Source: a virus
Lineage: Duplodnaviria; Caudoviricetes
DNA: 64,000 bases
Direction: 5' to 3' (one strand)
IMG/VR virus record: IMGVR_UViG_3300001598_001791
Coordinates: 1 to 64,000 of that record
The notes under the pieces were generated by a model, which worked only from the letters and a program-made list of their open reading frames with translations, made no database searches and was not told where the DNA came from. Of the stretch, positions 4,830-59,919 are shown one piece after another (positions within the stretch are counted from its first letter, which is position 1; each line of letters opens with the position of its first letter). Position numbers and translations under genes: made by a program.

Positions 4830-6188
4830 ATGTCTGATGTAAGTAAGATAAATGTAAATGGTACTACCTATGACTTAAAAGATTCTACTGCTCGAGCTCA
4901 GATTGAGGCCTTACCGAAGCCAGTTGTATTTAAAGGCACATTAGGAACTACTGGTACTATTACTACATTACCAGAAGCTAGTGCTAGCACAATTGGTCAT
5001 ATGTATAAGGTTATTACTGCTGGAACATATGCTGGAAAAGAAGCTAAAGTTGGTGACTTATTTATTGGAACTGAGTTACCATCAGCTACTGAAACTTGGT
5101 TAATTAATGATACTCCAGCAGTTGCTACAGGTGTTACTACTTTTACAGTTAATTTTAATTCTAATAACACTGCTTATTCCCAAATGGAAATGACCAAGAT
5201 GACAATGCCTGGTCTTGGAACTGTTAGCACTATTACTTATGGTAGTGATACTGCTTATTCAAGTTCCCATTCACCTAATTGGTATAATAATGATTATAAA
5301 ACAATTACTTTAAAGACAGCTGCCAGTGGAGACTTATTAACTTGGTTAACTAACAATGCTTCAAAAGTTTTATACGATTGGGTATTAGTTCCATCTGGTG
5401 ATGAACCAAGTGGTACTGTTACAAATATTGCTACTGGATCTGGTTTAACTGGTGGACCTATTACAACTACTGGTACTATTAGTGTAGATTATACTGCAGT
5501 ACAAGAAAAATTAGTTTCTGGAACAAATATTAAAACAATTAATAATGAATCTATTTTAGGAAGTGGTAATATTACTGCTGGCTTAGAAATTCCTGAAGTA
5601 GTTATTACTCAAAGCCAAGTAACGTCAGTTGACCCATTAACAATTCAATTAACTGATGCGCAATATACTTTAATTAATAGTAGTGTCAGTAAATTTATTA
5701 AATTGAATGCTACTGATTTAGGCTCTGGCACAATGACATTTAACGTTGAAGATTGAGAAACACTTCTTTACTTAAGTTCTCATAATGGTGTTTGGGATGC
5801 CACCACATCAGTAGCCGCAGCACAACAAGAAAATTTATTTGTAGTTAACAAGACTACTAAAGTTGGTATTTATTCAACTGTATATAGCCAACCACAATTA
5901 ATTCCTGGTAACAATATTGATATTACCAATAATGTTATTAGCTGGGTAGCTCCAGTTACATCAATGACAACAACAATCACTGGTGATGGATCTACAAGTT
6001 TATTTACAATTGATCATTCATTTAATACAAGAGATTTAATTATCCAATTATATGAATTAACAAACTATGAAACTGTTGAAGCAACAGTTAAGAGAGCTAC
6101 AACAAGCACTATAACAGTAGAATTTAAAGATGCTCCAGCTGTTGGTTTAAACTTTAGAGTTTGTATTTATTCATTAAATAATTTATAG
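4830..6188 (+). CDS. fibre-like virion protein (452 aa, code 4)
   Basis: ORFs 4830-5756 and 5964-6188 share a frame and are separated only by TGA at 5754. Confidence 0.7.
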
Positions 6189-9083: not shown

Positions 9084-10520
9084 ATGAGTATTGAAAGTCA
9101 ATTAACTGCTTTACAACAAGATATTACAAATGCTAGAGCTGCTGTCACCACAAAAGGTGGCACAGTTACTAGTGGAGGTGGGTCATCTCAATTAGCGACA
9201 GATATTGCTACAATTCCAACTGGTATTACTCCGTCAGGAAATATTGAATTAACACAACAAACAGGAACTAATGTTACTAATTATGCTACTGCTTCCGTTA
9301 AGTCAGGTTCATATTCAGCATCAGGTTCTGCAGCTATTACAACAACTCCAATTGTAACACCAGCAATTAGTGGTAATATTACAGATATTACTACTACAAC
9401 AACTCCATCTGGAACGAGTGGAACAGATTATTGGTTATTAGACCCAAGTGGTACTGTTACTACTACTGGTATTGCTACAGCTACTGGAACTGCTACGGTT
9501 GGTACTGCTGGTTGGTTAGCAACAGGCTCTAAAACAGGAACTGGCACAGCTAATATTACTCCAACAGTCGCGGCTGGAACTAATAGATATTTAACAAAAT
9601 CAACAATTACAAATAATACATCAGGTGGTACATCATCGGGAACTATTAATGCTGGTAGTCAAATTAAGTTTGGTGCTGGCTATAATAAAACAGATGTATA
9701 TTATACTGCCCAAGCGGCAAGAGGAACTGATAAAGCTGCAGCTACTTATAATACATCTACTTCAGATCAAACAATTGCTGCTGGTTATTATTTAACAGGT
9801 GCTCAAACAATTAAAGCTGTTACAACATCTAATATTTCAGCTGAAAATATTAAGAGTGGTGTCGTAGTTCAAGTCGGTGATGCTAATAGTGCTGGAAGAA
9901 TTAAAAATGTTACTGGTACTTATACAGGTCCTACTCTAAGAGGTACTGCGGTTGCTAGTGATGTTGCTGCTGGTAAGACGTTCTATAATACGTCAGCTAG
10001 TACAGTTGTAACTGGTACTGCTGCTATGGCTACTGCTACTTATAGTTCTGGTAATATTACTCTTACTAATGGTTTCCCTGCAGGAATTGGATTACAATCT
10101 AAAACAGTTACACCAACAACATCTGCCCAAACAGTTACTGCTGATAGTGGATATATTGGTTTATCAAGTGTTATCGTTAATGCTGCAACTGGTGGAACTG
10201 TTATGCAATATTATCAAGGAAGTGATAATAATACTAATACAACAATGACAGCTACAACTCTTACTTTAACTGTAAACCAAACAGGTACTTATACTGTTAT
10301 TTGGGGTGCTGGATATAATAGAAATTCAGGTTCTCCACAAACACAATTATATATTGGTACTACTGCTTATGGAAGTGCTACAACATATTCAGGAAACGGA
10401 ACATCTATTAAGTTGACTGGTGTTTCATTAACTGCTGGACAAACGGTTACGGTTTATGTAAAATCAGCCTCTAGTTCATACAGGGCTTCTGTATCTAACT
10501 TATTTATTATTAAAGAATAG
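9084..10520 (+). CDS. Thr/Gly-rich fibre-like virion protein (478 aa)
   Basis: Composition; ENIKSGV and GTA.ASDV.AGKTF fibre-type motifs. Confidence 0.65.
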   Translation: MSIESQLTALQQDITNARAAVTTKGGTVTSGGGSSQLATDIATIPTGITPSGNIELTQQTGTNVTNYATASVKSGSYSASGSAAITTTPIVTPAISGNITDITTTTTPSGTSGTDYWLLDPSGTVTTTGIATATGTATVGTAGWLATGSKTGTGTANITPTVAAGTNRYLTKSTITNNTSGGTSSGTINAGSQIKFGAGYNKTDVYYTAQAARGTDKAAATYNTSTSDQTIAAGYYLTGAQTIKAVTTSNISAENIKSGVVVQVGDANSAGRIKNVTGTYTGPTLRGTAVASDVAAGKTFYNTSASTVVTGTAAMATATYSSGNITLTNGFPAGIGLQSKTVTPTTSAQTVTADSGYIGLSSVIVNAATGGTVMQYYQGSDNNTNTTMTATTLTLTVNQTGTYTVIWGAGYNRNSGSPQTQLYIGTTAYGSATTYSGNGTSIKLTGVSLTAGQTVTVYVKSASSSYRASVSNLFIIKE

Positions 10521-11374: not shown

Positions 11375-12370
11375 ATGAAATCTTATTCATTTGAATATAA
11401 AGGTGTAGATGTTTATGTTAATTGTTCAAATGGTAAAGGAACTATTTCTAGTGATTACTGGGAAACAGGAACAAAACATTTATTAAAAGACTTTAAAGTT
11501 CCTGAATATACAACAAAGAAAAGAAACATTGCAGTTAATGGTGGATTATTCTACACATATGATAATAAATATTATGCTTGTGGAATTGAAAAAGTTAATG
11601 GACAAGTTCACCAAGACTGGGATACTGAATACGATGATGTGTGTGCTATTGGAATTAAATCTAACGGCACTCCAGTCATTGATACTCAAGCAAACATTAA
11701 GGCAAATTTAAGTACATATAAACACGCTGTTACGGGTGCATTTGGTTTAATGAAGAATGGTTCTAAATATTTAGGTAATTATAAAAAGTTAGGTAGTTAT
11801 ACTAAAATGTCAGGTAGAACATTAGTTGGCTGGAGTTCAACCACTAATAAATGAGTTATCATTTCATTTGAAGGTGAAACTGGAGAATCAGGATTAACTG
11901 GATCTCAATGTTATGACCTAATTCAATATATTAATTCTAACTACTCTTTAAAGATCACTGATTGTTTATGTATGGATGGCGGTGGAAGTGTTGGATTAAT
12001 TGTAAATGAAGTACAAAAAATAACAACTTCTAGAAAAATTAAAAATGCTATTATTATTTATGATGATAGTGACGATGAGGAAGAAGAGGAGGAATATGAA
12101 ATGGGAACATTAAAAATGAAATGCACGAAAGGTCAACAAGCGATTAGAGAAGAAATTGAATTTAAATATAATTCAACTAAAAAATGTTATCAACCTTGTG
12201 GAACTATTTTAGAAATTCTTCCTAAAGGAAATACTGAATGCATAATTACTGGATTCGTTGAAGGCTTACAAAAAGATGGTTATCAATGAGTAAAAGTTAA
12301 ACACGATGATGTTGAAGGTTATGCACAGTGGGACTCGATGTATTTCGAAGTTTATGAAATTAAGAAGTAG
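11375..12370 (+). CDS. phosphodiester glycosidase (NAGPA/DUF2233-like) with possible C-terminal SH3-like domain (331 aa, code 4)
   Basis: AVNGGLF, GRTLVG and MDGGGS motifs lie in one frame only if TGA at 11852 and 12287 are read through; ends at TAG 12368-12370. Confidence 0.65.
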
Positions 12371-25886: not shown

Positions 25887-28800
25887 ATGGCAAAAAACTT
25901 ATTAGAAGACTACAAAGGTAGACTTTCTGTTAGATTTTAAGCAGCGTAGTGAAGTAATTTATTATGATGTTTCTTATTGTACCTAAATACAATACTTTAA
26001 TCTACTGTCTCTAATAAGAGAAACAAACCTGGTGAATTCATGGAAAATCTAAAACTTAACGGGACCTCCCAACCCGGTTTTAGACAATCATGAGCCAAGC
26101 CCATTCGGGAAGGTGCAACGACTATCGAAATGGTAGTTTAGGAGAAAAACCTAAATAAGAACAAAGTAGAGTACATCTAATTAGGTGGAAGTACCAGGGT
26201 CCTTATAAAGGATAAAACAACATAAGGATATGATATAGTCTGATCTCCGTGGTGACATGGAGTTAACACAAATGTTCTGAAAAATTCTATGGCGACCGTA
26301 ATGAAGGCGCTAAGATGGGAAACGCTAAAAAACTTTTAACTGCTCAATGTTTAGACAATGTAGCTAAATATTTAAATGAGGCATTCACAATGACTGCAGG
26401 AACACAAAGAGGCGATTTAGGCGCTTTCAAAGTTTTCTGTATGGACATTACTACATTAACAATGCCAAACCTTATTGTTAATGACTTATTTATGGTTCAA
26501 CCAATGAGTTCATTCCAAGGTTATTAAAAAGTTATAGTAACCTAGCTGCTATAATAAAAAGAAGGCAGCTACAATAAACCTCATAAATTCATGGAAACTC
26601 CTTACCTTTCAGGACAATCATGAGCCAAGCTTTCAATTTCTCAGTTGAAAGAAGGTGCAACGACTATCGAAATGATGGCTAGTAATAGCTAGAACAAAGT
26701 AGAGTACAATTCAAATGAATTGGAAAGATGAGGCTGCCAGAAATGGTAGATAATATAGTCTAAACTATATGGTAACATATAGAAAATATTTTGAGAAATT
26801 ATTAATAAATGGCTACTGAGAAATAAAAAGCTTAAAATAATTTCAATGATTTATTTGTAATACAATTGTTAACTTACATGGAATATGCTTTAGCACCAGC
26901 TAAGGGTGGTGTTGCTGAAGGTACTGTTGTTCAAAATCCATTCCAATGGGCACCAATGACAGAAGCTAGAATGCAATACACTGGCGAAGCTGTTGTTGAA
27001 AAGATTGATGCTACTGGTGGTATTACCTTCGCTTGGGGACCAGTTGTTTATGGTAAAGCTGAAGACATCAGAGTTGAAGTAAACGGCGCTTACGTTCCAG
27101 TTCCAGCTGACAGACTAGTTAAAGATGCTAATGGTAAAGTTATTGGTATCGCTGCTGGTTATATGGCTGAAGGTACAAGAGTTGCTTATAGATATGACAA
27201 CCAATTAATCCCACAAGAAAAACTTCCTGGCATCAAAGGCCAAATGAAGGGTATCGCATTAGTTGCTAAAGCAAGAAGAATTGGTATTGAATATTCACAA
27301 TTCGCGGCTTAACTCAAGATACAAATCTTGAAAAGGTCCCTTACACAGTAATGTGTATTGAATAACCTATTTAATTGCTGGGAAACCTTTATAGCTAACT
27401 AAACTACAACGCAATTTGAAAAGATAATCGTGAAAGTTTTAAAATTAGTTAGATTAGGCAATCAGCAGCGAAGTTCCTTTAAAATGGAAAACGTTCAACG
27501 ACTATCACCGGCGGGTGAGTAGATATTATGTAATATCAAAATAATAGGTATTTTTAAATCAAAAAAATAAATTATGGAAAAGAAAAAGAGAATTCCTTGA
27601 AACAAGGGTCTTACAAAAGAAACAGATCTAAGGGTTGCTAAGGGAGCTGAAAATACTAAAAACACAGTATTATCTAGATACGGTGTTAGTAATATATTTC
27701 AGTCAAAAGAAGTACTTGATAAACTTTCTGCAGATAGACATTCAGGTGAACTTGCAAGAAGAGCAATGGACACAAAGAAGTTAAGATATGGCGATCCGAA
27801 TTATAATAATATTGAAAAGAATCATCAGACTAAATTAGATAGATATGGTGATCCAAACTATAATAATCAAGATAAAAACTATGAAACAAGAAAAATAAAC
27901 GGCACATTTAATACATCTAAACCAGAAGAAGAATTAAAACAAGAACTAGTAAATAAATACGGTGAGGAAGACGTAGAAGTTGAATATAGAGATCCTAGAT
28001 ACCATAATAAAGAAGGGTATAAATATAAATGTGATTTCTATGTTAAATCTGAGGATTTATTTATTGAACTTAATTACTGGCAAGGACACGGACCACATCC
28101 CTTTGATGAAAATAATGAAGAAGATTTGAAATTATTGGTTAAGTGAGAAGATAAGGCTAATTCAGGATTACCTCAATACAAAAATTATATTTATGTATGA
28201 ACTGTTGATGATCCTAATAAATTAAAATGCGCAAAGGAAAATAATCTTAATTATCTGATGATTTATAGGAATGGTTTAAAAATAAAGATATAGTCTCCTC
28301 TCTTACGAAAGTAAGAGGCAATAATTATTGCATTATAGAGTAACGATCTATAATAAAGAAAAGGTTTCAAGCTAAGCAAGATTACGGCATGGACTTCGAA
28401 GCTACTATCGCTCAACAAGCCCAAGCTGAATTAGAGTATGAAATTGACTCTGAAGCGGTATTCATGATCAAGAATGCTGCTGATGCATCAGCTCCAGTTG
28501 TTACTTGGGTTGATGAAGAATTGGATTAAGAAAAAAAAGTTTACATTTTCTTACAATTATTGTTACATTTATTATAAAGATAATGGAAATGATATAAGAA
28601 GATGTACTACATATTTTACATATTTATTTAATAATAAAGAACATACTTATACTCCTGATTTTATTATAGGAGATGAATATGCTGATGTTAAAGGTACACA
28701 TTTTATTAAAGATAACAGAATGATTAACCCGTATGATCGATCTTTAGATGATCAATATGAAGCAAAACATCAATGTATAATTAAAAATAATGTAAGACTT

Positions 28801-31800
28801 ATTTTAGAAGAAGAAATAAATAATTGTAAATTATTTGTAGACCAAGAATATGGTTGTAATTATATAAACCAATTTGAGGTGACTAAAGGTCCCTTAATAT
28901 AGAAATATATTTAGAAAACGATGTGAATTTCTGGGACATCTTATATACTTGCATACATATATAAGACAATCAGAAGCCAAGCAAATAGAAATATTTGAAG
29001 GTTCAACGACTATCGAAAAGTTAGTTTAAGAGAAATACTGAAATGAGAACTTAGTAGAGTACACTTTAAGTAAAGTGGAAGCGCATCGAAACTTACAGAG
29101 GTTCAAACAATGTAAGTTTATGATATAGTCTGATCTTATAGGTAACTATAAGAAATTAGATGGAAACGATCTAATTGTAACATAAATGACAATCAGCTAT
29201 TCAATGAAGGCTAAACCTATTTTGGTCTTGGCGTAAGTAATTACGTAAAAATATAAACCGCATTAACTCAGGGGAACTCCCACAGGGAAAATCCTGATCC
29301 GAGCCTCTACTGTAAGAGGAAGGTGCAACGACTATCGAAAAGGTCATTAATAAGAAATATATTAATGAGAACTTAGTAGAGTACATCTCAAAAGAGATGG
29401 AAGTGTGCGGCAACCTAGAGAGGATAAAACAATCTAGGCTGAAGATATAGTCTGAACTCTATAGCAATATAGAGAGAATTAAATTTAGTTTAAATATGAA
29501 CAATATAGAAGAAAAACAAAAAAATCACGCTGGAGGTACTAAAGGTTTAAAGTACTACAATGAGTGTAATTACAACTGAACTCATGGAAATACTGAACTC
29601 ATGGAAATCATGCATATGATTAAAATAATGAAGACGATCTTGAGAAGGTTGTTGAATGAGAAGATAAAGCCAATGAAGGAAAAAATTATTATAAGAATGC
29701 AATCTATACATGAACAATTTTGGATGTTCGTAAACAAAAGACTGCTAAAGATAATAATTTAAACTATATTGTTATATATAAATAATTGTTTAATTCGTAA
29801 CATAATTGGAAGGCTTTGCTAGAGCTATCGAAAGAGCTAAAGCTCATGTTTATAAAGCAACTGGCAGATTTATGCCTAACTGGATTAAAAATCTTGAATT
29901 TTGTTGCTAAATTTATTGTATAATATAATAAATAAGGCAATTTGGCATGAATGAACAAATAATAAAATTTTACAAAACACATACTGGTGCAAAAACTAGA
30001 AAACAATTTAGTTAATATATGGTAAAAATTATTTAAAGTCATTCAAAATTTAAAGATATGTCCCTTATTAAAGAAATTTAATATAGAAAACCACGAGAAT
30101 TCATGGAAACGCCTATTCACATTGGAGAGTGATTAGGTCAATCATGAGCCAAGCCCATTCGGGAAGGTGCAACGACTATCGAAATGATATGCATATACTT
30201 AATATGCAGAGTAACAGAGTAGAGTAAGACTTAAGAAATTCTGAAGTACGTGGGATCTAGAAATAAAGTAATCTAGATTATGATATAGTCTGAACTTATA
30301 AGTAATTATAAGAAAATAAACGGATTCGGTTTATTTGTAACACAATTGGTTAGTTTCTCCAGATATGATGACTATCCTTCCATTCGTTCCTGGTTTCGTT
30401 CATGCGAACAATGCTATTGCTAACGGACCATATGTTGCTGGAAATGTTGCTGGAATGAAAGTTATCGTATCACCAGCTTTAGGTAACAAAGTTTGTTACT
30501 TAGGTGTTTTGGGTGCAGATGGCAAGACTGCTGTTGGTGTATATGCTCCATTAAAAAATTATGCTTTCGCATAATGATTACAGTGGCCTTAAACAGAGAT
30601 GTTTAAGTGAAAACAAATTTAATTGCTGGAAAGTCCTTAGAGCTCTTTTGGCTACAACGAAAGAAGTAATTCTAATCGTGAAAGCTTAAAAACAAAAGAG
30701 ATTGGATAATCAGCAGCTAAGTTACTTATTTATGAAAACATATTTATTTAGGTATATTGGTAGGACAGTGGGTTGCAAACCATTTTCTATTACTCCTAAT
30801 AATAGAATTACTACCTATATATAAATTTAATTTTAGAGGATTATATTTTGTATGGATATGTTTATTTAACTGAAAATTTAATAAGTAAAAAGTTCAACGA
30901 CTAAGGGGTAGCACCCTGTAATAATCAAATGATTATGAAAGAGTTTGCATCTTATCCTAAATAAGATGATAATATAGTCTCTTCTCTATAGAAATATAGA
31001 GCTACAAATTGTAGTAGTTAAAGTAATGAATTAACTAAAAGATAAAAGATATGCCAATCGTCCCAACTCAATTATTAGGCTTTGCTGATGGCACTATGAG
31101 CCAAGGTTTGACAATCGCGACATGGCAGTTCGCGTAAGACCGTTTACTTAGCAATAAGTAAAATAAATCACATATTTAATTGCTGGAAAATCGTAAAGCT
31201 CACAAGCCTGAATGGTTACGAAAGTAGAAACAAGTTGTGAGATATCTATATGGTGTAAACCTAAGTAGATGTAAATCGATAATCAGCTTCCAAGCTTCTG
31301 TTTAGAAGAAGGATCAACGACTATCCCCTAGTGGGAGTAGAGAAGAAGTCTTCTCGAAAAGGTATGCATCTTAAAAAGATGATGATATAGTCTATACTTT
31401 ATTCGAAAGGTAAAGGAGAAATTATTTTGGGAAAAAGAACAAATTATATTAACCCTGATACAAAAGAAGTTATTTGATGTATTAGAGGTAATCAACCAGA
31501 AAACTGAGTTGAAATAAAACATTTTAAAAAGGTAGATGAGTTAAAGAATACTATTTCTAAAGAAGAATTATTTATTTATTATATTATAGAAAATAATAAT
31601 TTTATAACTACTGCTAAATATTTCAATATAAATCCTGCAAATGTATTACATGATTTACTAAAATATTACGGTATACATAAAGATAGTGTTTCTTCTAGTA
31701 AAAATAATAAATATAAAAGATCAAAAGAAGAATCCATTTTAGTTGGACAGAAATCTTCTTTAACACAAAAAGAAAAATGGAAAAATAAAAGCATTGAGGA

Positions 31801-32561
31801 AAAAGAAGAATATAAGGAAAAACAAAAAATAGCTCATTCAACTGATACTTTCAGAAAAAAAATAAGTGATATAAATAGAGAATATAGAAAAGAACTAAAA
31901 GATACTGATCCTGAATTAGATTTTGAATTAAATAGGCGTAGGTCTATTTCATGTAAAAAAACTTGGTCTAATAAAGATTTAATAGACAAAAGGAATGAAA
32001 CAGCTAAAAAGAACAGATTAGAAAGAAAAAATCAAATTTGTAGAACTAAGGCTGAACAATCAGTCTATAATGTACTGATTAATTTATTTCCAGATCTTAT
32101 TTATGATAAAATAATTGATGAAAGATATCCTTATCATATTGATTTTTATATTCCAAGTGAAGATCTATTTATAGAACTAAACGCACATCCTTCTCACGGT
32201 AAACATCCTTTTACTGGTGATCTGAATGAATGCTATAATATCACTGGTAATTGGCTAGATACTTATATTAGACGAGACGTAGAAAAAAGAAATTGTGCTA
32301 TTTCAAATAATCTTAATTATTTAGTTATTTATCCTCAATCATCTTTAAGAGAAAACATCTCATTTAATCCCGAAAAATATAAAGACTTAATAAAAATTAT
32401 TTATAATTCCCAGAATAAATCTCACTAATGATTAACGACCATTAGTAAATATATTAGTTAGCACACTTTATGATATGCGAATCTTAAATGAAAAATTATT
32501 AGCAAAGATCAACGTTGTTGAAGGCGATGAAGCTGCATTGGTAAAAGTTTTAGAAGCTTAA
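25887..32561 (+). CDS. major capsid protein (T4 gp23-like), 454 aa, spliced: join(25887..25930,26275..26524,26869..27309,28365..28526,29189..29212,29809..29885,30349..30551,31049..31108,32458..32561)
   Basis: Exons sum to 1365 nt with no internal stop; junctions give VQPMSSFQGYLTY, YSQFAAFQAKQDYG, ELDTISYSMKAEGFARA, MPNWMLVSPD, GVYAPYMPIVPT and SQGFSTLYD, matching gp23-type motifs. Confidence 0.9.
25931..26274 (+). other. group I intron 1 of the capsid gene (344 nt, no ORF)
   Basis: Exon ends in U, intron ends in G; P1 CUGU/GCAG; P3 CCUGGU/ACCAGG; P7 GACUA...AUAGUC. Confidence 0.85.
26525..26868 (+). other. group I intron 2 (344 nt, no ORF)
   Basis: P1 GGUUAU/GUAACC with U.G at the splice site; P3 CCUCAU/AUGAGG; P7; terminal G. 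Confidence 0.9.
27310..28364 (+). other. group I intron 3 with endonuclease ORF in P8
   Basis: AUUGCUGGGAAA, AAUCAGCAG, UUCAACGACUA and AAGAUAUAGUC core elements; P3 ACCUAUU/AAUAGGU; terminal G. Confidence 0.85.
27574..28293 (+). CDS. intron-encoded putative PD-(D/E)XK (Vsr/DUF559-like) homing endonuclease (239 aa, code 4)
   Basis: P(TGA)NKGLTKETD motif; RYGDPNYNN repeats; YKCDFY...LFIELN; the TAG stop lies inside the P7 3' strand. Confidence 0.75.
28527..29188 (+). other. group I intron 4 with ORF remnant in the P1 loop
   Basis: Exon GGAU pairs with GUCC about 365 nt downstream; P3 CGAUG/CAUCG; P7; ends GUAACAUAAAUG. Confidence 0.85.
28528..28902 (+). pseudogene. start-less TnsA/PD-(D/E)XK-like endonuclease fragment
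   Basis: YTPDFII..EYADVKG motif; no in-frame ATG upstream of the nuclease motif within the intron. Confidence 0.5.
29213..29808 (+). other. group I intron 5 with decayed endonuclease in P9
   Basis: P1 AAGGCU/GGUCUU; P3 CCGCAU/GUGCGG; P7; ends GUAACAUAAUUG. Confidence 0.85.
29496..29785 (+). pseudogene. degenerate homing endonuclease, paralogue of the intron-3 ORF
   Basis: C-terminal WEDKANEGKNYYKNAIYTWT...KDNNLNYIVIY matches intron-3 ORF WEDKANSGLPQYKNYIYVWT...KENNLNYLMIY; most of the N-terminal part is missing; 17-nt tandem duplication at 29575-29608. Confidence 0.75.
29886..30348 (+). other. group I intron 6
   Basis: Exon GGAU pairs with GUCC near 30060; P3 CCACG/CGUGG; P7; ends GUAACACAAUUG; splicing creates the AUG codon of MPNWMLV. 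Confidence 0.85.
30552..31048 (+). other. group I intron 7 with GIY-YIG remnant
   Basis: P1 CCAU/GUGG; AUUGCUGGAAA, AAUCAGCAG, UUCAACGACUA and AUAUAGUC cores; RBS plus LYGYVYLTENLISKK at 30848-30892. Confidence 0.85.
31109..32457 (+). other. group I intron 8 with endonuclease ORF in P9
   Basis: P1 GGUU/GACC; core elements at 31167-31392; terminal G at 32457 restores SQGFSTLYD. Confidence 0.85.
31427..32428 (+). CDS. intron-encoded putative PD-(D/E)XK homing endonuclease (333 aa, code 4)
   Basis: AAGGAG RBS plus TTG start; two TGA; RYPYHIDFYIPSEDLFIELN..HG.HPF motif shared with the intron-3 ORF. Confidence 0.7.
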
Positions 32562-32572
32562 TCCCAAAAATT

Positions 32573-32601
32573 AAAAGAAGCTGAAAAGCTTCTTTTTTTT
32601 T
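32573..32601 (+). terminator. capsid operon terminator
   Basis: AAAAGAAGCT-GAAA-AGCTTCTTTT followed by a T tract. Confidence 0.8.
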
Positions 32602-32655
32602 AGTTTACTTTTTGATATATTAATTGTAGTATAATTATCATTGTATATTATTATT

Positions 32656-32737
32656 GTAATCACCCACTGTGGTTATTCTAGTGTTTTAAACACAATCCTC
32701 TTTATTCAGAAGACTTAAATAAGTCTTCTTTTTTTTT
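32656..32737 (+). ncRNA. candidate small RNA 1
   Basis: TG-TATATT -10 at 32642-32649; 5' hairpin GUAAUCA/UGGUUAU; UCCUCUUUAU linker; terminator 32708-32737; no ORF. Confidence 0.5.
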
Positions 32738-32774
32738 AGTTTACAAACATATTTATTTGTTGTATAATAATAAT

Positions 32775-32837
32775 GTAATCAAATTAATGGTTATATTTTC
32801 CCCTTTATGACAGTAGAGATCTCTGATCTCTACTTTT
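32775..32837 (+). ncRNA. candidate small RNA 2 (paralogue of sRNA 1)
   Basis: Promoter TTTACA-N17-TATAAT at 32740-32768; same 5' hairpin at the same distance from the -10; UCCCCUUUAU linker; terminator 32812-32837. Confidence 0.55.
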
Positions 32838-32841
32838 CTAG

Positions 32842-32870
32842 TTTACAAGAAATAAATTGTATTATATAAT
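32842..32870 (+). promoter_or_regulatory. sigma70/sigmaA-type promoter
   Basis: TTTACA-N17-TATAAT. Confidence 0.7.
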
Positions 32871-32891
32871 AAATATATAGAGGTAAATGAG

Positions 32892-33146
32892 ATGGTAAAT
32901 CAGTTAATACAAGAGTTAATTAATTCTGAATATATCACATATAATAATCCGGCGATAACTGAAAAGGGTGATGCTTTTGTTTATAGATTAAATGATGGGA
33001 AATTATTATATACTCCTGTTGTTAAAGACTTTCCCTACAACAGCGGAAGTTATATAGTTAAATTAAATGATGAAGAATTTGATTTAACCGGGCAAGAATT
33101 TAGCAGATTGCAGTATGAAATTTTAGTTAGGTTTAGAAAACAATAA
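32892..33146 (+). CDS. hypothetical protein (84 aa)
   Basis: AGAGG RBS; own promoter. Confidence 0.65.
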   Translation: MVNQLIQELINSEYITYNNPAITEKGDAFVYRLNDGKLLYTPVVKDFPYNSGSYIVKLNDEEFDLTGQEFSRLQYEILVRFRKQ

Positions 33147-33170
33147 AAAGAGGGTTAATCCCTCTTTTTT
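33145..33170. terminator. bidirectional terminator
   Basis: AAAAAGAGGG-TTAAT-CCCTCTTTTTT between convergent genes. Confidence 0.8.
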
Positions 33171-33496
33171 CATACTCTTTCTTTCCATGATTTCTTTTTT
33201 CTTTCTTTGGTTTTTATTCCATGAACTTCTTTGTGACATTTGATACATAAAAGAGTCAGATCACTATCTTCTTCATTACCTACTCTATCATAAGTTAGGT
33301 GGTGTACATTGGCATCCCTTAGTTGTATAGCTTTACCACATTTAGTACATCTTCGATCATATTTCCTATAAATTTCTATTCTCTTGAATTTTCAATGTGA
33401 AGTTTTGAGATAGTTCTTATACCCAAGAACTTTCTCATTAGTATCTTCACAGATAATCTCTCTATTTTCTCAGAATTCTTTTGATTTGTATTTCAT
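33155..33496 (-). CDS. free-standing HNH endonuclease (113 aa, code 4)
   Basis: YLKTSH(TGA)KFKR, CTKCG, VHHLTY..VGNE..DL.LLCIKCH..VH motifs; three TGA; ends at TAA; the only supported minus-strand gene. Confidence 0.8.
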
Positions 33497-33576
33497 ATAA
33501 TATCATACATTTAAATTTGAAGTGTATTTTATTTTGAATAGTTATTGCTAAAATTAATATACAAAGGAGGTTATCT

Positions 33577-34335
33577 ATGTTTATTAAGAGATCTTTAAAT
33601 GAGGCATCCCGTGGTCAATTGATAAGCAAATCAAAGAATGCTGATGTAGTAAAATCTTATGGGACTACTAGATATGGACGAAAAGACTATCAACACGTTG
33701 AAGATACTACTGATAACCTAAATAGAGTTGATTTTAATGCGTTGTTTAAAGCTGATCTGTTATCTCTCATAATCCCTGTTCAGGGTGAAACTTCTGAGTA
33801 TAATGTAGAAATACTTTTTGAGGGTGTTTGTTCCAATATAAAAGATCAAATAAAAAATAACAACTATATTCGAGAATATAAATGTATATATAGAGCTCTA
33901 ATTGATGCGATAAATAAATATGATTTATATGTTAGTTGTGACTGCAAAGATTTTAAATTTAGACAGGCCTATTATGCATCAAAAGGGAGATACAATTCAG
34001 GTCAAACACAAATTACTCCTTCGAGGATAACCAACCCAAATGATACTAAAGGTGCAGGGTGTAAACATATCATGAAGGTTATTTCTGACCTAGATTGGTT
34101 GCTTAATTTATCTACTTGCATAAATAATTATATTACTTATATAGAAGAAAATTATAATGATAAATATAGAGATATTATTTTTCCAGCTATTTATGGAATT
34201 GATTATGATTCTGCTATAAATAGAGGGATTATCGACATTGATGACAATGAGATAGATAATATCAATATTGAAGAAGAGCCTATAGAAGATAGTTCTACTG
34301 AGCCTAGTGAAGAAAGCCAAGAGGAGGAATTATAA
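33577..34335 (+). CDS. SWIM-type Zn-finger protein
   Basis: CDCKDFKFR...GCKHI motif; downstream of the late motif at 33546. Confidence 0.6.
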   Translation: MFIKRSLNEASRGQLISKSKNADVVKSYGTTRYGRKDYQHVEDTTDNLNRVDFNALFKADLLSLIIPVQGETSEYNVEILFEGVCSNIKDQIKNNNYIREYKCIYRALIDAINKYDLYVSCDCKDFKFRQAYYASKGRYNSGQTQITPSRITNPNDTKGAGCKHIMKVISDLDWLLNLSTCINNYITYIEENYNDKYRDIIFPAIYGIDYDSAINRGIIDIDDNEIDNINIEEEPIEDSSTEPSEESQEEEL

Positions 34336-49463: not shown

Positions 49464-49499
49464 TCTATATATTATACAAATGAAAGGAAATTTGTAAAA

Positions 49500-52400
49500 A
49501 TGAAAGATCCTAATATCTCAGCAATGAGTTATACCTCAAAAGACTTTGGTCAAATTTATAAAGAGGCGCTTGATCTGGCTAAAGAATTAACAAACAGATG
49601 AGATCCTTCACAATCAAATGAAAGTGACCCTGGAGTTGTTCTTTTAAAAGAAGGTGCTTTTTTAACAGACCACAATAACTATAATATTGATAAAAATGTT
49701 TTAGAAAACTTTTTACCTAGTGCTACACAAGATAGATCTGTCCGTAATATTATGGAGATGAATGGCTATACACCAAGATATTATGTATCAGCTATGGGTA
49801 AAGTATCATTCAAATGGGAAAATCCAAATGCCACAAAAGGTGATTACTCAGGGACTAGCTTTACTATACCTAGATTTACCTTAGTAGTATCTGACGCTGA
49901 TGGAACTGTTTCATATACTCAAGCTGATGATCTAGCTATCTCGATAGATTATGAAAACCCATCTTCTGCCTCATTAGTATCATCATGTAACTTCATTGAA
50001 GGTACTTTACAAACATTAACGATAAATAACTCTGATACTGTTTTCTTGGAAAATATCGACGACAACAATAGAGTTTATTTACCTGAAACAATGGTTGCCC
50101 AAAATGGTGTTTATATCAGATACTCAAATGATTCTGAGCATAAAGAATATGGATTCTGGGAAAGAAATAATTATTTATCTACACAACCAGCCGGTTCTAG
50201 ATTATATAAAATTGATTATGACTCATTTAAAGGATTACCTTATATTGAATTCCCTTCAGATATTTCTAACATTATTTTAAGTGGGTTATTAGTTCAATAC
50301 ATTTCAACATCAGGTGAAGCCGGTAATGTTAGTGCTAACACTTTAGTTAATATTGTTACACCGACAGAATTTTATGATAGAGACGGATATTCTAGGTCAA
50401 CTGAGTACTTAACTTTAAATAACGTTTCAGCAATTACTAATGGCAAAGACCCTGAAACAATTGAAGAGATGTACCAATCGTTTAAAAAAGTTGTTGGTAC
50501 TTTCGATACTTTAGTTTCATGTAATGATTATAAAAATAAAATTAATTTATTGGATGATGGTGTCAATTATCTTGTATCAAATAACTATGTTACGGATAGA
50601 AGAACTGATTACAATAAATCAGCTAATGTAGTTACTTTTGATAGTAAAGGTGTTTATCAGGCTAATTTAAGTATTAAACCATGTTCACTAAGACTTAAAG
50701 GATCAGCTGATGAGTGTACTTCCATAGGTGATATGTACTATGATTCTGTCTCTAAAAAATTAAAAGTTAAAATTGGAGTCACTGAAGATAATTTTGAAAG
50801 TTGCGATACAATTAATTTAAATGACTTCTCTTTATTGACAGAGGCAATGACTCCATATGATTTAGTTGTTTACGCTTTAAAGAATTTTTCTCTTTCAGAT
50901 TATAATAGATCATATCCTTATAGGGCTTTACAAAATTCTTTTACTCCTATTTCATCTTCAGTTAGAAATGATTTAGAGAATTTAAATTATGGATATCTAA
51001 GTGATAGTAAATGTATTTGCCATACATTTAACGATCCTAAATCAGGTGAAGTTTACTGTTTTAAAAATTATGTACCATTAAATGTTACTATTATACCATA
51101 TAACAAAATTACTGCTGATGAAAAGTCTAATATTATAAATAATATTTATATTGCTTTGTCAGAAAACTTTAACCCTAGAAATATTGAATTCGGTGAAGAT
51201 TTAGATATTACAGCTGCAAAAGAAGTTATTCTAAATAGTGATAGCAGAATTAAAGATTGTAATATTGATTATAAATATGAAACCTATGCTATGAACAGTA
51301 TTTCTGGTAGTGATGGTATTTATGAAGAGAAAAAACTAAATGGTACTCTCACCGGATCTTCATCAGTATTACTACTTGATTTAGTTACTAAAAATATTTT
51401 AGCTGGTAGAGTCTGTTTATTTGAATTTGATGAAGACTTTACTTATGACTATGAGCAATCTGATTGTAAATTTATCGATAATGCTACATCATTTAAAACA
51501 GCACTCCCATTACCACTTAAACAGTCAGCCGTAAAAAGTGTAACAACTGCGAAAACAACTACAACAACTTCAGTCATTGATGGTTCTTCTAGTGGTTATA
51601 CAATTTACTATAATTTTAATGCACCTAACTTAGATTCACCTGAAAGTAGAGTAAATGTAACAAAGGGAACTTCATATACACTACAAACAGATGAAGATGG
51701 AGTATATGTTGACTCCTTTAGACTAGAAATTATTCAAGGCACTGGCACTGAAAGTAAAGTTATTAGTGATGTTACCTATAAAGCTTCACTTGACACTACA
51801 TATAGTTTCAGTTTAGATGATGCAAATATCATTAACACTGCTGATGATACATTAACTTCGATAACTGGTAAATTAACTATTGTTACTATTAGGGTTGATG
51901 CATCAGATGATGAAGGAACAGAGAACCTTAATTATACTTTAGATAAGAATGAATATATTCAAATCCTTTATCCAAATTACTACTCAACTGATACATATGG
52001 AATCTATGTTAATTATAGATATCAATCAACTGATCCAGACAGTATAATCAGAGCTAACACTGAACATACATTGAGATCTGATGAAAAACTAGTATTAGTT
52101 TATACAAATAATGGTGTTACTGTAACTGATGTACCTGTTACTGGTACTATCATTAGATCAAGTTTTGATATCAATCAAACTGATAAATTATCGGCAACAG
52201 GAACCAAAAAGAGTTGAACTGATTTAGATGGTACTTACCATGATAATGAAAAATTCATGTCATTGTCATCAAATCAAACTATTTCAAAACGTTCTCAATT
52301 TAGTACTATTCTAAATGGTACTAATATTAACTGTTATTGGATGGTTAATAATTCAACAAATACTCTATTCTCAAATAAAGGACTGAGTGAAGAAAGAGTT

Positions 52401-53807
52401 TTAGGCAATAATGAATATTTCATTTATACCAATTCAACTAAAGATGAGATGATGATTCTAGGTTCTGGGACTAAACTTTTGAAGTCTAGTAATGATAAAA
52501 ATAATTGGATAATTGATAAAGATACTACTCAAACTATTGAGTCTATTACTACAAACGGAATTACATCTTCAATTCCGTGGTCAGTTATGGACTTCTCACA
52601 AGCACCATTTGAGATAGTTGAAATGAATTTTATTACATTATCAGAAGGTGATTCTATTAAGATTAGCGGATGAGAAGGATTAAAATCAGGTGATAAGATT
52701 AATAACTCATGGGTATATTGTAATGGTACAATAGCCTATACGTCAGGTGGAACTACTACAATTTTACCAAAAGTTTCAAATTTTTATAAAATTAGAAGTA
52801 GACTTGATTTAGTTTGTGGCCCAACAACTCCACAAGAAATAATCTATCGAGGAACTGACGGAATAAACCAAGAAGTACATATTAACAGTACTGCCTTATC
52901 CGGGTATAAAATCCAGTCATCTATTCAATTAAATTTATTAGGTGATGAAAATATTGATGTTTCTGTATATACTCAAAATGGGATATCAATTAACATCTTA
53001 GGATATAAGACAGAAGAAAAAATGACAGCAGTATTAACTCCTGATGGATTAGACCCTATAAATCTAACTCCAGGTAGATCTGTTAATATTGATTATAATA
53101 AGTCATATCCAAATAGAAAACAAACTTATACATACACATACCCGTTCTATTATTTCAATTCAGCTGAACATGTTCGTGAATATCTTGTACCTGTTTATAT
53201 TGAAGGTGATGAAATTAACCTCAACGCTAAGATGCAGAAAAAGTCTGGAGAAGATAGTTGGGAAGATATTTATTTCATTGATTATAATGTTGATACTTCT
53301 TCAGTGCTTTCAAAAACTCTCACTGGAAATAACATGTATTTCTTATCACCGTCTACATCAGGAGGAACAACCCCTCTAGTTTATACAGGTGAATTAAGAT
53401 TAGTTCTAACATGGGAATTCCCGGAATCATTTACTGGAATGAAAAACTTACAAACTTTAATAGTTGATGATTTAACAGTTATTAAGGGTATTAATAATAA
53501 ATTATCTATTGATATTACTAATATAAATAAAACCAATATACTTTCAAGAATAAATGGTATTATTAGTGGATCTGATAAACCAAGTACAAAGTTCTATTAC
53601 TCATATAGACCAGATTCATCAATGGAAATTAATTTAGATAAATATTTGAGTTATACTATTAACAACAATCAGATAGTTTATGAAATGAAGGCCTTTGATA
53701 ATCCATTAATTATGTGAGATACAAATAACGTTGCCAATAAAATGACTATTGCTCAATTAGATTTGGCCAATTCTAGAATTGATACAGATAGTAACATGGT
53801 GGTTTAA
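49500..53807 (+). CDS. baseplate wedge/baseplate-J-like protein (gp6-like; 1435 aa, code 4)
   Basis: SYTSKDF...(TGA)D...ESDPG..L motif; three code-11 fragments (49752, 52257, 53022) join in one frame across four TGA. Confidence 0.75.
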
Positions 53808-55008: not shown

Positions 55009-55806
55009 ATGAGTTATATATCATCTTCAAACGTTAGTGTGTTTCCTTCAACATATAGAAACCAATACCAGACAAGCAAGCTAACAAGTGAAAATAATTT
55101 TGTAAATATAATTAATGCCATTATCAATAGACCTAACGGTAGCTATGTAGTATCACATGAAAATAATGTATTACGATTAGTTATTCATGGTTATTATTTC
55201 GAAGTAACCAATTGGACAAAATCTCCAAATTTAGTTGCATCAATTAAAGTTGAAAATAACGGTTTCAGTTTGGTTAGACATGATAATTTATCAATTGATA
55301 ATTTAGATCAAAATTCAATTTTTTATGGCTTAGATATTTCAGAGGGTAATCCTGTTAATGGCTCTGATGAAAATTATACAACTTATTCATTACAAATAAC
55401 AGACTCATCTAATAATATTATTAACCAAGAAAGACTTACTACAGATGTTATCGAATGAGGTAAGTCAGGAAAAACGTTATCTACAAGATTAGATGAGCTT
55501 CAAGAGCAATTAGTTGTGGGAGATAATTCAGGTCTTACTTTATCATCTGACAAGAAAACGCTTGCTCTCAATCTTAAATATAAAAATAGCCTAGATAACT
55601 TAGGTAACAAAGGTGGTTCTGGTAATAAATTAATCTACTTCGATAACGATGGCGTTGTCAAAGATTCAACTTCTACAATAGGAACAGATCATCAAATTGT
55701 TTATGTGAATAATGGAACATTAACAGCAGGAGCTAAAATAACTATTAGTAATTCTAATCCATCTGGTGGAAATAACGGTGACATCTGGCTTAAATATGGA
55801 GGCTAG
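55009..55806 (+). CDS. fibre-associated protein (265 aa, code 4)
   Basis: One TGA; C-terminal ISNSNPSGGNNGDIWLKY fibre motif. Confidence 0.6.
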
Positions 55807-55811
55807 ATAGT

Positions 55812-57623
55812 ATGTCAATAAATGTTGTTATACATACATACGATACAGAATTATCAAGAAGTGGTAATGTTACTGGGTATCATTATGACTCTAGTGGAAC
55901 TTCAATTAAAACAATCAATATTCCATCAGGAACTATTAAAAAAACATATCAATGTAATTATGGAGATGTTTTATATTCATTAAAATATTCTCATGTGGGT
56001 TATACTATAGACCATTGATATGGAGAAATATCAACAGGATCTTCAGCTAGATCCACAGTATATTTACCAACAGAAGGTATAGTAAATATTGATATAACCT
56101 CTGATATGAAGGCTCTAGAGCTATGGCCAGAAGTTAATGCTAATACCTATACAGTAACTGCATCTGCTAGTGGAAGCGGTGGTTCTGTAAAACCTACTTC
56201 AACAACAGTAGAGTACAAAAAAACTGCTACATTTACAGCTAATGTAGATTCTGGATATGTAGTTGATTGTTGGTATTTTAATAATGCTCCTAAAACTTCG
56301 GCCGGAACTAGCTCAACGTATACTACTCCAGAAATAACAGAAAATAGTACTGTTAAAGTTGTATTTGCGAAAACCCAATTGAAGTATTATTTTTATGATA
56401 ACGGCCAAGAAGTAAAATCAGGTGATGGATACCTGGGTGAAACGATTAACTTTTCTAAGTATAAAATATCTAAAGATAATACTGTAACACAGAGAACTGG
56501 GTATAAGATGTCTTTTTATGATTATCAAGGTGGAAGTAAAATTGGTGAGTCTGACATATCTGGTGGACAAATTATAACATCATATACTTTGTCAGGTTGA
56601 AATAACGGGTTTGGTAATTTTTTTGAGGCAGATGGAATTGAAACTATAAAACCACTATCAGGAAATCGAGAATTCTATGCACAATGAACAGAGTCTTCTA
56701 CATCTACTAATAACAAATTACAATCAATACTAGATTCACCTTCTAGATTAGGGTATACTTTTAATTTCTGGAAGTGAAATGGTGAACAGCTATCAAAAGG
56801 ACAAGAGATTACCGAAGATGGTAATCAAAATGCTTATGGTGATTGGACTCCACGTATATATAATGTATCATTTGCACTTGGATCTTCTGATACAACAATT
56901 GGAAAGTTACCAGAACCAACTTGAGGAACTGGATCAAAACCGTCTACTCAAACAAAAACATTCGGTACTGCTATAGGGAAACCTGAAGTTATACCTGAAA
57001 GATTTGGTTATACTTTTGTTGGTTGGCATATTGATAAAAATGTATCACCAACAGATTCTAGTATAATTACTGGTACTACTATTGATGATAGATTCTTTAC
57101 CTCAAATTCAACTACTACTGTAACATTATATACTATTTGGAAACCAAAAGAATTAACAGGTAGAAAAAATTATTACTATAACGGTGTCTCTTATACTGAA
57201 GACTTCTCCTACACTATTGAAAGTGTTAATTCTAGAGGTGAAAGAATTTATGATGTAGGATTGCCGGATAAGGGATCTACCGACGGTGAGTGGGTTTTTG
57301 CTGGATGAGTAAAAGATAAACCTTCTAGTTGAACAGATAAAAAGGGAAGATATAGAAATCTTATCGAAGTAGGAAGTGAGCCTAAATTACCTTATGAAAT
57401 TAAGGTAATCACTATCACTGACTGGGACAGTAAAGACACAGAACAATTTTATGGCATCTGGTCTTCAAGTGGTAAATATGTTAAAATAAATGGTGAATGA
57501 GTTCAAGTTCCGGTAGCATATGTAAACGTTAATGGTGAATGGAAATTAATGTATGATTCAGATGGTTGTTCATTCTATGTTAATGTTAATGGAAACTGAA
57601 AACCTGAAGCAGGTGGAAATTAA
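55812..57623 (+). CDS. tail fibre/receptor-binding protein with InlB-B-like repeats (603 aa, code 4)
   Basis: Nine in-frame TGA; P.R.GYTF..W repeats; terminal YV(K/N)(I/V)NG.W triplet. Confidence 0.7.
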
Positions 57624-58439: not shown

Positions 58440-59459
58440 CTGACAAAAAAAGAAGCTTGAGAAAAAGATAAAATAAATTTAAAAGTTTCTCCAGCACAAT
58501 ATAAAGAAGAATTTGAATGGCTGTCTGAAGTAGATAGTCATGCACTTGGTAATGCTCAATTAGATTTGAATGCCGCATATTCTAATTTTTTCAGAGGACT
58601 CAAAAAGAAACAAAATATTGGATTCCCCAAATTTAAGTCAAAGAAATTTTCGAAAAGAAGTTATACAACTAATATAGCGAATAAAGACTCAACATCAATA
58701 AGGCTTGAAGATGATCATTTCTTAGTTCTTCCTAAGCTAGGTAGAGTAAGATTTAGAAAATCTAGGGATGTTGTTGGTAAAATAAAATCAGCTACAATTT
58801 TTCAAAATGCAGTTGGAAAATACTTTGTAAGTATCTTAGTCGAATACGAATGAGAAAAACCAAATTATCAAATAAACTTAGAAAATTCAATTGGTCTAGA
58901 TTATTCATCTCCTGATTTCTATGTAGATAACTTTGGAAACTCTCCTGAAAAGATTAAATTCTTTAGAGAGTATGAAGATCAGTTAGCTAAAGAACAAAGA
59001 AAATTAGCAAACATGAAATTAAACTCAAACAATTATCAAAAGCAAAGAAAGAAAGTTGCAAAAGTATATGAGAAGATAGCCAATTCTCGTTTAGATTTTT
59101 GTCATAAACTTTCTACACAACTTGCTAACCAATATGATATTGTTTGTGTTGAAGATATAAATTTAAGAGCTATGTCTCAATGTCTTACTTTAGGCAAAGC
59201 AACTATGGACAATGTGTTTGGAATGTTTAGATCTTTTCTACAGTACAAACTAGAAGATAGAGGTAAAGAATTTGTAAAGATAGACAAATGGACTCCAACA
59301 TCTACGGTATGTTCAGTTTGTGGAACGTATCATAAAGATATAGTCTCTAATCTCTCTGTTAGAGAATGGACATGTCCAGATTGTGGGACTATCCACAACA
59401 GAGATATCAACGCTGCTGAAAATATTAGATTAGCTGGAATTAGTTTACTCACAACATAA
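58330..59459 (+). pseudogene. tnpB: TnpB RNA-guided nuclease gene with two +1 frameshifts in A-runs
   Basis: KAYKFKLEP and GCVRFIYN N-terminus; RuvC IGLD, VEDIN and RDINAA; CSVC/CPDC Zn finger; frame changes at 58336-58341 and 58445-58451; two TGA. Confidence 0.8.
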
Positions 59460-59571
59460 GTTGTGTTAAAATAATTATACAGGGTAGGGACTACCCGGTG
59501 AGCCTGTTGATACTGTGCCAGTTATGGCACTTGAGCAGGAATGGTCTTAGCTTTAGCTGAGACCTAGTTCA
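59460..59571 (+). ncRNA. TnpB omega/reRNA scaffold and IS right end
   Basis: GGGTAGGGACTACCC, CCTGTT/GAGCAGG and terminal hairpin downstream of tnpB. Confidence 0.55.
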
Positions 59572-59592
59572 AATATAGTAAAGGAGATCTTT

Positions 59593-59919
59593 ATGAATAT
59601 AGAAAAGAAAATTCCATTAATTGTTTGCCCTGTTTGCGGACAAACCTATGTTCCATCTGAAGTATTTATCCCTGAATCATTTTTTGGAGATCAAAAAGAA
59701 GTTATTAAAGATAACCAAGGAAAAGTTGAATTCTACACTGGGGATGACATGGATCTTGAAGAAGAATATATTTGTGATGGATGCGGTACTAAATTGAAGA
59801 TAATTGCAGATTTAAGTTTTGATGTTATACCTGAAGATAAATTTGATGATGAATATACTGTTGAAATAAATAAACCTGCTAAATTAAAACTAAGAGAAAC
59901 CGACTTATTTAATGATTAA
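59593..59919 (+). CDS. Zn-ribbon protein
   Basis: CPVCG and CDGCG; AAGGAG RBS. Confidence 0.7.
   Translation: MNIEKKIPLIVCPVCGQTYVPSEVFIPESFFGDQKEVIKDNQGKVEFYTGDDMDLEEEYICDGCGTKLKIIADLSFDVIPEDKFDDEYTVEINKPAKLKLRETDLFND

Follow-up and report, generated by a model that had tools for sequence, protein, structure and literature searches.

The 300-nt stretch at positions 32573-32870, behind the major capsid gene of the phage contig studied here, can be read with about even confidence as a tandem triplication of a composite cassette, in which a terminator is joined to a sigma-70-type promoter, an analogue of the promoter-early stem-loop (PeSL) elements of T4-type phages, and which lies in a hypervariable slot bounded by that gene and the late structural gene that follows. 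For the origin of this array, we infer an ancestor with the order cassette, short body, cassette and ORF, in which duplication most likely occurred by unequal recombination between two cassettes and was followed by divergence. The present array would act in cis in two ways: three terminators in series would keep the heavy capsid transcription out of the module of ORF84 and an HNH gene, and ORF84 would be expressed from the third promoter (P3) plus any read-through from the second (P2). We class the RNAs of the first two units as candidate sRNAs within the cassette array and do not claim an established sRNA family.

The window analysed is the first 64 kb (64,000 nucleotides) of a 78,431-bp IMG/VR viral contig with 31% G+C and an estimated completeness of about 47%. 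Its proteins include Pfam matches to Portal_T4 (E = 8e-36) and to Peptidase_S77, the prohead protease, and the homologous loci of relatives matched the Gp23 and gp13 families; judged by these genes, the contig is a distant T4-like myovirus. Its host is probably a low-G+C bacterium. Genes of the relatives can be translated only with TGA read as Trp, and many long frames in the contig are open only with TGA as a sense codon, for example 49464-53807 with four in-frame TGA and 55794-57623 with nine. No tRNA gene was found by ARAGORN in the window or in the whole 78-kb contig.

Upstream of the array, the intron-split gene for the gp23-like major capsid protein has its last exon and stop at 32475-32562 on the plus strand, in an open frame ended by TAA at 32560-62, and the intact capsid homologues in relatives have the Pfam Gp23 domain. 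The capsid gene region (25887-32561) is split by several group I introns, with five Rfam matches at 25987, 26515, 28871, 29203 and 30040, and endonuclease-like ORFs lie in the region of these introns, including one of 306 codons at 31508-32428. Downstream of the array, the cargo of the third cassette is ORF84, an orphan accessory gene of 84 codons at 32892-33146 on the plus strand, which belongs to no PHROG or Pfam family and which found only itself among 5.8 billion protein clusters. Its end overlaps that of a free-standing HNH homing-endonuclease gene on the minus strand (33155-33496; 113 aa with code 4, three TGA being read as Trp; Pfam HNH, E = 2.5e-5), which is directed toward the ORF84 cassette and shares its terminator. 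The terminator-like hairpin at this overlap (33145-33169, scored on the minus strand) is so positioned that it could stop transcription of both genes. Between the HNH gene and the next conserved structural gene (33577-34335) lies a late-promoter-like box, TTGCTAAAATTAATAT. A second conserved box, TTGCTAAA(T/A)TTAATAT, was observed throughout the lineage just 5' of late structural genes, at 33537-33560 in the window, at 4968-4986 in L004 and near 4985 in L021, L022 and L024. The late promoter of T4 is TATAAATA, and by analogy this box is a candidate late promoter with a similar role.

The three terminators of the array were located by scanning for terminator-like hairpins, which placed them on the plus strand at 32573-32596, 32708-32729 and 32812-32834, and by folding. 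The first, T0 of cassette a (32573-32602), is bidirectional and has a 10-bp stem followed by 10 U (-13.1 kcal/mol, z = -4.4); T1 of cassette b (32708-32738) has a 9-bp stem and 9 U; and T2 of cassette c (32812-32840) has a 10-bp stem with the weaker tail UUUUCU, which is the weakest U-tract of the three. Counting both strands, the surrounding 2.5-kb region holds five terminator-like sites, against 0.3 expected from shuffled sequences. In each of T0, T1 and T2 the T-run is followed by TAGTTTAC and stops 2 nt before the -35 box, and the first 20 nt of the junction (CTTC, the T-run and AGTTTAC) show no difference between units 1 and 2, unit 3 being 85% identical. The three stems also have a common base, AG(A/T)AG...CT(T/A)CT, in which T2 carries a compensatory flip from A-U to U-A; this likeness extends beyond the promoter and indicates that the entire cassette was triplicated.

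The claim of the earlier note that three terminator and promoter units are stacked within 300 nt is borne out for the terminators, each with its TAGTTTAC, and for the second and third promoters, which are canonical; the first promoter is not intact. P2 (32737-32773) consists of TAGTTTAC, 18 nt, TATAAT and then AATAA, and its 16 nt from the -10 box through TGTAA are identical to the post-capsid promoters in L011, L014 and L015. P3 (32839-32870) drives ORF84 via the leader AUAUAGAGGUAAAUGAG. Both promoters, taken as 32740-32768 and 32842-32870, agree with the sigma-70 consensus at 11 of 12 positions. The damaged promoter region P1 (32601-32649) retains the TAGTTTAC box and two -10-like boxes: from TTTACT (32604-09) there are 20 nt to TATAAT (32630-35) and 34 nt to TATATT (32644-49), which the earlier note had taken as the -10 box, and the sole correctly spaced alternative is TTGATA-18-TATCAT at 32612-32641. 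Between units 1 and 2 the repeat register moves from 136 to 119 nt, which points to a 17-nt partial duplication of the -10 region of P1 together with a 3-nt insertion.

These promoters belong to a family that repeats throughout the genome. The pattern TAGTTTAC-N18-TATAAT occurs in the contig at 1213, 32737, 32839, 61589, 66754, 70777, 73563 and 77410, the cassette family has about nine copies on the gene strand of the contig, and the gene-strand counts of the pattern in relatives are 13 in G001, 9 in G002 and 12 in G003 (0-1 for the reversed control pattern). Nearly always the family promoters stand directly 5' of a ribosome-binding site and a small ORF. The start motif that had been noticed 5 nt after the -10 box in both gene-less units, TGTAA, is indeed seen; in unit 1 the box used to place it lies 34 nt from the -35 box, and the motif recurs 4-5 nt past the -10 box at family promoters that drive mRNAs (77411 in the contig, and in L005, L010, L011, L012 and L014-16), where AAAGAGGTAA and a start codon come next. 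Compared over these sites, TGTAA is evidently a feature of the promoter family rather than an sRNA signature. The result is a usable promoter definition for the lineage, namely TAGTTTAC-N18-TATAAT, often with (A)TGTAA 4-5 nt further on. Since the -35 box of 8 nt, TAGTTTAC, exceeds the plain sigma-70 hexamer, a phage factor may be involved.

Some promoters of the family precede structured sequence. Downstream of the family promoter AGTTTAC...TAAAAT at 59442, a 134-nt intergenic stretch (59455-59600, plus strand) is G+C-rich for this genome. Three or four strong hairpins are predicted in it (-46 kcal/mol, z = -4.3), it matches no Rfam family, and on this modelled fold it is a candidate for a structured leader, or for a non-coding RNA, that precedes the ORF at 59593-59919. 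In relatives, structured non-coding sequence replaces the ORF behind family promoters at 9776, 10837 and 11058 on the plus strand of G002 (the record of L009), and it also follows those at 12104 in G003 and 14847 in G004, both on the minus strand. Some of these promoters lie in an apparent tRNA region, and tRNA-like T-arm sequences were seen in the relatives at 5811 and 13338 in G002, 99278 in G001 and 8047 in G003.

The variability of the slot was examined in 13 relatives, which were found via the capsid protein, whose identity to that of L004 is 65-79%, and the downstream 252-aa protein (at most 62% identical); with 62% as the best identity for a neighbouring protein, none of them is close. 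In 8 of them (L007, L009, L010, L011, L012 and L014-16), the capsid terminator is directly followed by a terminator and a family promoter, which in L005 come one small ORF later; in L021, L022 and L024 the slot has no family cassette and holds the late-promoter-like box only. The small ORF driven by the post-capsid promoter varies between phages, and in the present contig the slot also houses the homing endonuclease gene. From the variable ORFs and the variable occupancy it follows that the slot is hyperplastic and that the composite terminator/promoter is its constant element.

Between the cassettes lie two bodies, for which the earlier note had proposed ORF-less transcripts of a common design. 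No credible ORF exists in either body, on either strand, in code 11 or code 4, rare starts included, so this part of the proposal stands. Body 1 (32655-32707, plus strand) comprises a 5' hairpin (32656-32676), an extra hairpin of 13 nt that unit 2 does not have (32681-32693) and a CU-rich linker (32696-32705), and the candidate sRNA1 extends to about 32738; body 2 (32774-32811, plus strand) comprises a 5' hairpin (32774-32795) and a CU-rich linker (32799-32808), and the candidate sRNA2 extends to about 32840. The proposed common anatomy is likewise supported by folding: in both units an 8-bp hairpin right at the expected start of the RNA, an unpaired linker and a terminator are predicted (-18.8 and -17.4 kcal/mol, z = -4.5 and -4.2, respectively), and the linker decamers have predicted unpaired probabilities of 0.995 and 0.975. 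On the sense strand of the 78 kb, TCC[TC]CTTTAT occurs only at 32696 and 32799, and the other sense, non-coding, non-terminator C-rich tracts of the contig lie only inside two introns.

The comparison of the two copies yields evidence that weighs against the triplication account. The 3' hairpin arm TGGTTAT is kept at 7 of 7 positions and the linker at 9 of 10, hence 16 of 17 together, which is as well as the -35 and -10 boxes are kept, whereas identity falls to about 60% in the promoter spacer, and the loops (CCCACUG and AAUUAA) and upper terminator stems are unrelated. The 5' arm is identical at 8 of 8 positions, five of these bases being those of the promoter family, and only TCA plus the 3' arm are specific to units 1 and 2. 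The stems being the same in both copies, the pair shows no covariation. Outside the promoter-linked bases there are 19 identities in 20, with a probability of about 5e-4 against a neutral identity of 60%, for blocks that were picked post hoc; over the whole bodies, the alignment scores no better than shuffles. The hairpin would form only in the plus-strand RNA because it includes two G-U pairs, and this strand preference, together with the rarity of the C-rich tract in sense non-coding DNA, is also unfavourable to triplication as the full explanation. Furthermore, clean recombination between PeSLs either removes or adds cargo, with one chimeric cassette as its product, and on its own it creates no gene-less body of 40-55 nt, so that the ORF-less unit must predate the duplication. 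From this pattern, the bodies look like diverged paralogues in which a hairpin arm and a linker were selectively kept, and the retention suggests constraint on the bodies themselves. Compared with the leaders of the family, whose 5' hairpins have a median of -0.4 kcal/mol, strong 5' hairpins are unusual; the six most stable ones, that of unit 2 included, all belong to promoters with no ORF start within 60 nt. Body 2 might derive, by decay, from a leader with its start codon such as that of the small ORF in L011 and L014, but the sequence in common, GGTTAT and TTATGAC, is too short to carry this origin.

As to the transcripts, an RNA of about 65 nt that starts from P2 and ends at T2 is almost certainly made, to judge from the signals in the DNA, whereas the damage to P1 makes a unit 1 RNA of about 83 nt doubtful. 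Unit 2 is predicted to be a credible small transcription unit, and unit 1 appears as a decaying copy. Of the findings that the earlier note had named as telling against it, two hold in part: covariation of the hairpin in relatives was not seen, no relative carrying the units, and a degraded promoter duplication does describe unit 1, whose promoter is degraded and partly duplicated, P2 being canonical.

Homologues of the bodies were sought widely. The region has no match in 50,697 phage records by megablast or blastn, a neighbouring 406-aa protein has none in the same records by tblastn, and ORF84 and the adaptor protein led to no related loci among viral contigs. The exact pattern of hairpin plus linker was found in none of the viral contigs and none of the GTDB genomes; its two metagenome matches were rejected as chance, both lying within the apparent antisense of an ABC-transporter ATPase gene. 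Short-word BLAST matched elsewhere only the promoter part and not the bodies. In relatives there is no ORF-less promoter-to-terminator unit, and among 49 family promoters only the one at 32738 was flagged. The sense, non-coding, non-terminator C-rich tracts in five relatives are only four tRNA-like stretches and one terminator arm. Rfam gave only introns above the gathering score, and a permissive run gave terminator-driven noise with E of at least 1. MAFFT misaligned sRNA1 and sRNA2, and a covariance model built from sRNA2 alone, which failed to recover sRNA1, gave nothing at E < 0.2 in 468 kb of relatives; these searches for family members, which the earlier note had suggested, thus returned none beyond the introns, with a single-sequence model that is too narrow.

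The explanation that survives best beside the triplication account, possible though unlikely in our judgement, is that the units are two trans-acting sRNAs, each with its own promoter and terminator and with a protective 5' hairpin that begins where transcription starts, whose C-rich tract (UCCUCUUUAU or UCCCCUUUAU) blocks the Shine-Dalgarno sequences of host or phage mRNAs. It draws on the confirmed architecture with unpaired linkers, on the hairpin arm and linker selectively kept between the paralogues, on the rarity of sense-strand C-rich tracts and of strong 5' hairpins among the leaders of the family, and on the precedent of RoxS (PMC5419742). The linkers also bind phage ribosome-binding regions more strongly (mean -7.9 and -7.4 kcal/mol) than random windows (-4.1 and -4.5 kcal/mol), which agrees with the complementarity proposed in the earlier note; however, the strength of linker pairing correlates with canonical 16S anti-Shine-Dalgarno pairing, and the scan of phage targets revealed no early/late bias and no outstanding target. 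The best phage-wide duplex of the second linker is within the best of ten shuffled linkers, and that of the first is about 2 kcal/mol beyond it. Perfect linker complements of 10-12 nt near 69983 and 20537 fall, by eye, in apparently coding stretches with no obvious gene start. The linkers pair with ribosome-binding sites in general, and the phage targets scanned include no specific one. This generic pairing, the damage to P1, the absence of homologues, covariation and an Rfam family in the searches above, and the shuffle-level alignment of the bodies all count against two trans-acting sRNAs. What speaks for a trans-acting anti-Shine-Dalgarno role is thus the conservation between two copies, and we treat this role as tentative. 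As for the functional sRNA family that had been suggested, the sRNA-like anatomy is retained, especially in unit 2, and relatives with the units and covariation are missing. If the RNAs do act as regulators, few known phage sRNAs would be simpler, and they would indicate that the shuffling of promoter-terminator cassettes can carry RNA genes besides orphan ORFs.

A stronger form of the trans-acting reading, which we consider improbable, takes the array as a duplicated minimal sRNA pair with a 5' protective hairpin, an anti-Shine-Dalgarno-like seed that differs by one base and a terminator, which would block ribosome-binding sites or mimic the 16S anti-Shine-Dalgarno and so shut down classes of host or phage mRNAs; the early-type promoters of the pair would then lie within the late capsid region of a TGA-recoded T4-like phage. 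T4 shuts off its early mRNAs with the proteins RegA and RegB, of which such a pair would be, if true, an RNA-based counterpart.

Still less likely is a role of the CU-rich tract in cis: in read-through transcripts past T2, whether they come from P2, P1 or the capsid gene, it would mask the ORF84 ribosome-binding site, so that ORF84 would be translated only from P3 transcripts. In T4, a hairpin that covers the ribosome-binding site sets the long transcripts of some genes apart from the short ones, and the cis model would resemble this discrimination. For the P2 read-through (32774-32915), the minimum-energy and centroid structures agree in predicting a helix between CCUUUAUG at 32802-32809 and UAUAGAGG in the leader of ORF84, across the hairpin of T2, and the U-tract of T2 is the weakest of the three. 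On the other side, this fold scores no better than shuffled sequences do (z = -1.3), with an ensemble frequency of 0.005 for the minimum-energy structure, the ribosome-binding site of ORF84 is an average partner for either linker (-7.4 kcal/mol), and the model leaves the 5' hairpin, the strong T1 and the presence of two copies without a role. Hardly credible, finally, is a micro-protein in unit 1: a frame for a hydrophobic peptide of 25 residues is open from TTG at 32641 to TAA at 32718, but it has no upstream ribosome-binding site, its start codon falls at or before the 5' end of the transcript, unit 2 has no equivalent frame because the loop lengths differ, and the peptide is conserved nowhere. 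Minus-strand and other micro-ORF readings were rejected, having no start codon or ribosome-binding site.

Among known systems, three were compared with the array. In type III toxin-antitoxin loci, ToxI consists of tandem near-identical repeats under one promoter, followed by a terminator and a ToxN-type toxin gene; likeness to it was rejected, each unit here having its own promoter and terminator, the bodies being diverged and ORF84 belonging to no family, and the roles of antitoxin mimic or protein-binding decoy that the earlier note had considered found no support. The RoxS/RsaE sRNAs of Firmicutes use C-rich regions that pair with G-rich Shine-Dalgarno sequences and block translation initiation (PMC5419742, PMC6158497). 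Units 1 and 2 are like them in the accessible C-rich tract fit for such pairing and in the small transcript with an intrinsic terminator that is predicted, though doubtfully in the case of unit 1, and unlike them in that no sequence or Rfam relationship, no specific target beyond the generic Shine-Dalgarno match among the phage mRNAs scanned, and no conservation or covariation in relatives or in a curated RNA family was found.

The closest likeness is that to the PeSLs of T4-type phages (Arbiol et al. 2010, PMC2839356; Comeau et al. 2014, PMC4122927). These join a terminator stem-loop and an upstream A/T-rich tract to a sigma-70-like promoter; they repeat, shuffle and duplicate in hyperplastic regions, where they flank orphan ORFs and bring about the shuffling of these ORFs. 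The earlier statement that no listed feature type explains the stretch is therefore to be withdrawn, since composite cassettes of this kind have been described (PMC2839356, PMC4122927). In the present array, too, a stem-loop predicted as terminator or attenuator adjoins the promoter, an A/T-rich tract lies upstream of the -35 box, and sigma-70-like -35 and -10 boxes follow at 32740 and 32842, while the spacing in P1 is wrong; the 3' ribosome-binding site and start codon of a PeSL are present in cassette c, with ORF84, and absent in a and b. The cassette likewise recurs throughout the genome, mainly in variable regions and beside orphan ORFs, what fills the slot varies among relatives, and the setting is a phage with T4-type portal and prohead protease whose relatives have the T4 Gp23 and gp13 families. 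It differs in that its stems are A/U-rich with classical U-tracts, instead of the polyG/polyC of PeSLs, in its -35 box of 8 nt, in the probable low-G+C host and in reading TGA as sense; and of the recombination between cassettes known for PeSLs, with its indels among close relatives and its mini-circles, a duplication is what the paralogy of the units suggests here. On the evidence of the sequence, then, the terminator and promoter unit is the general composite cassette of this lineage and a close analogue of the PeSL, and the finding chiefly widens the range of PeSL-type cassettes, which now takes in a distant, low-G+C, TGA-recoded branch of the T4-like phages.
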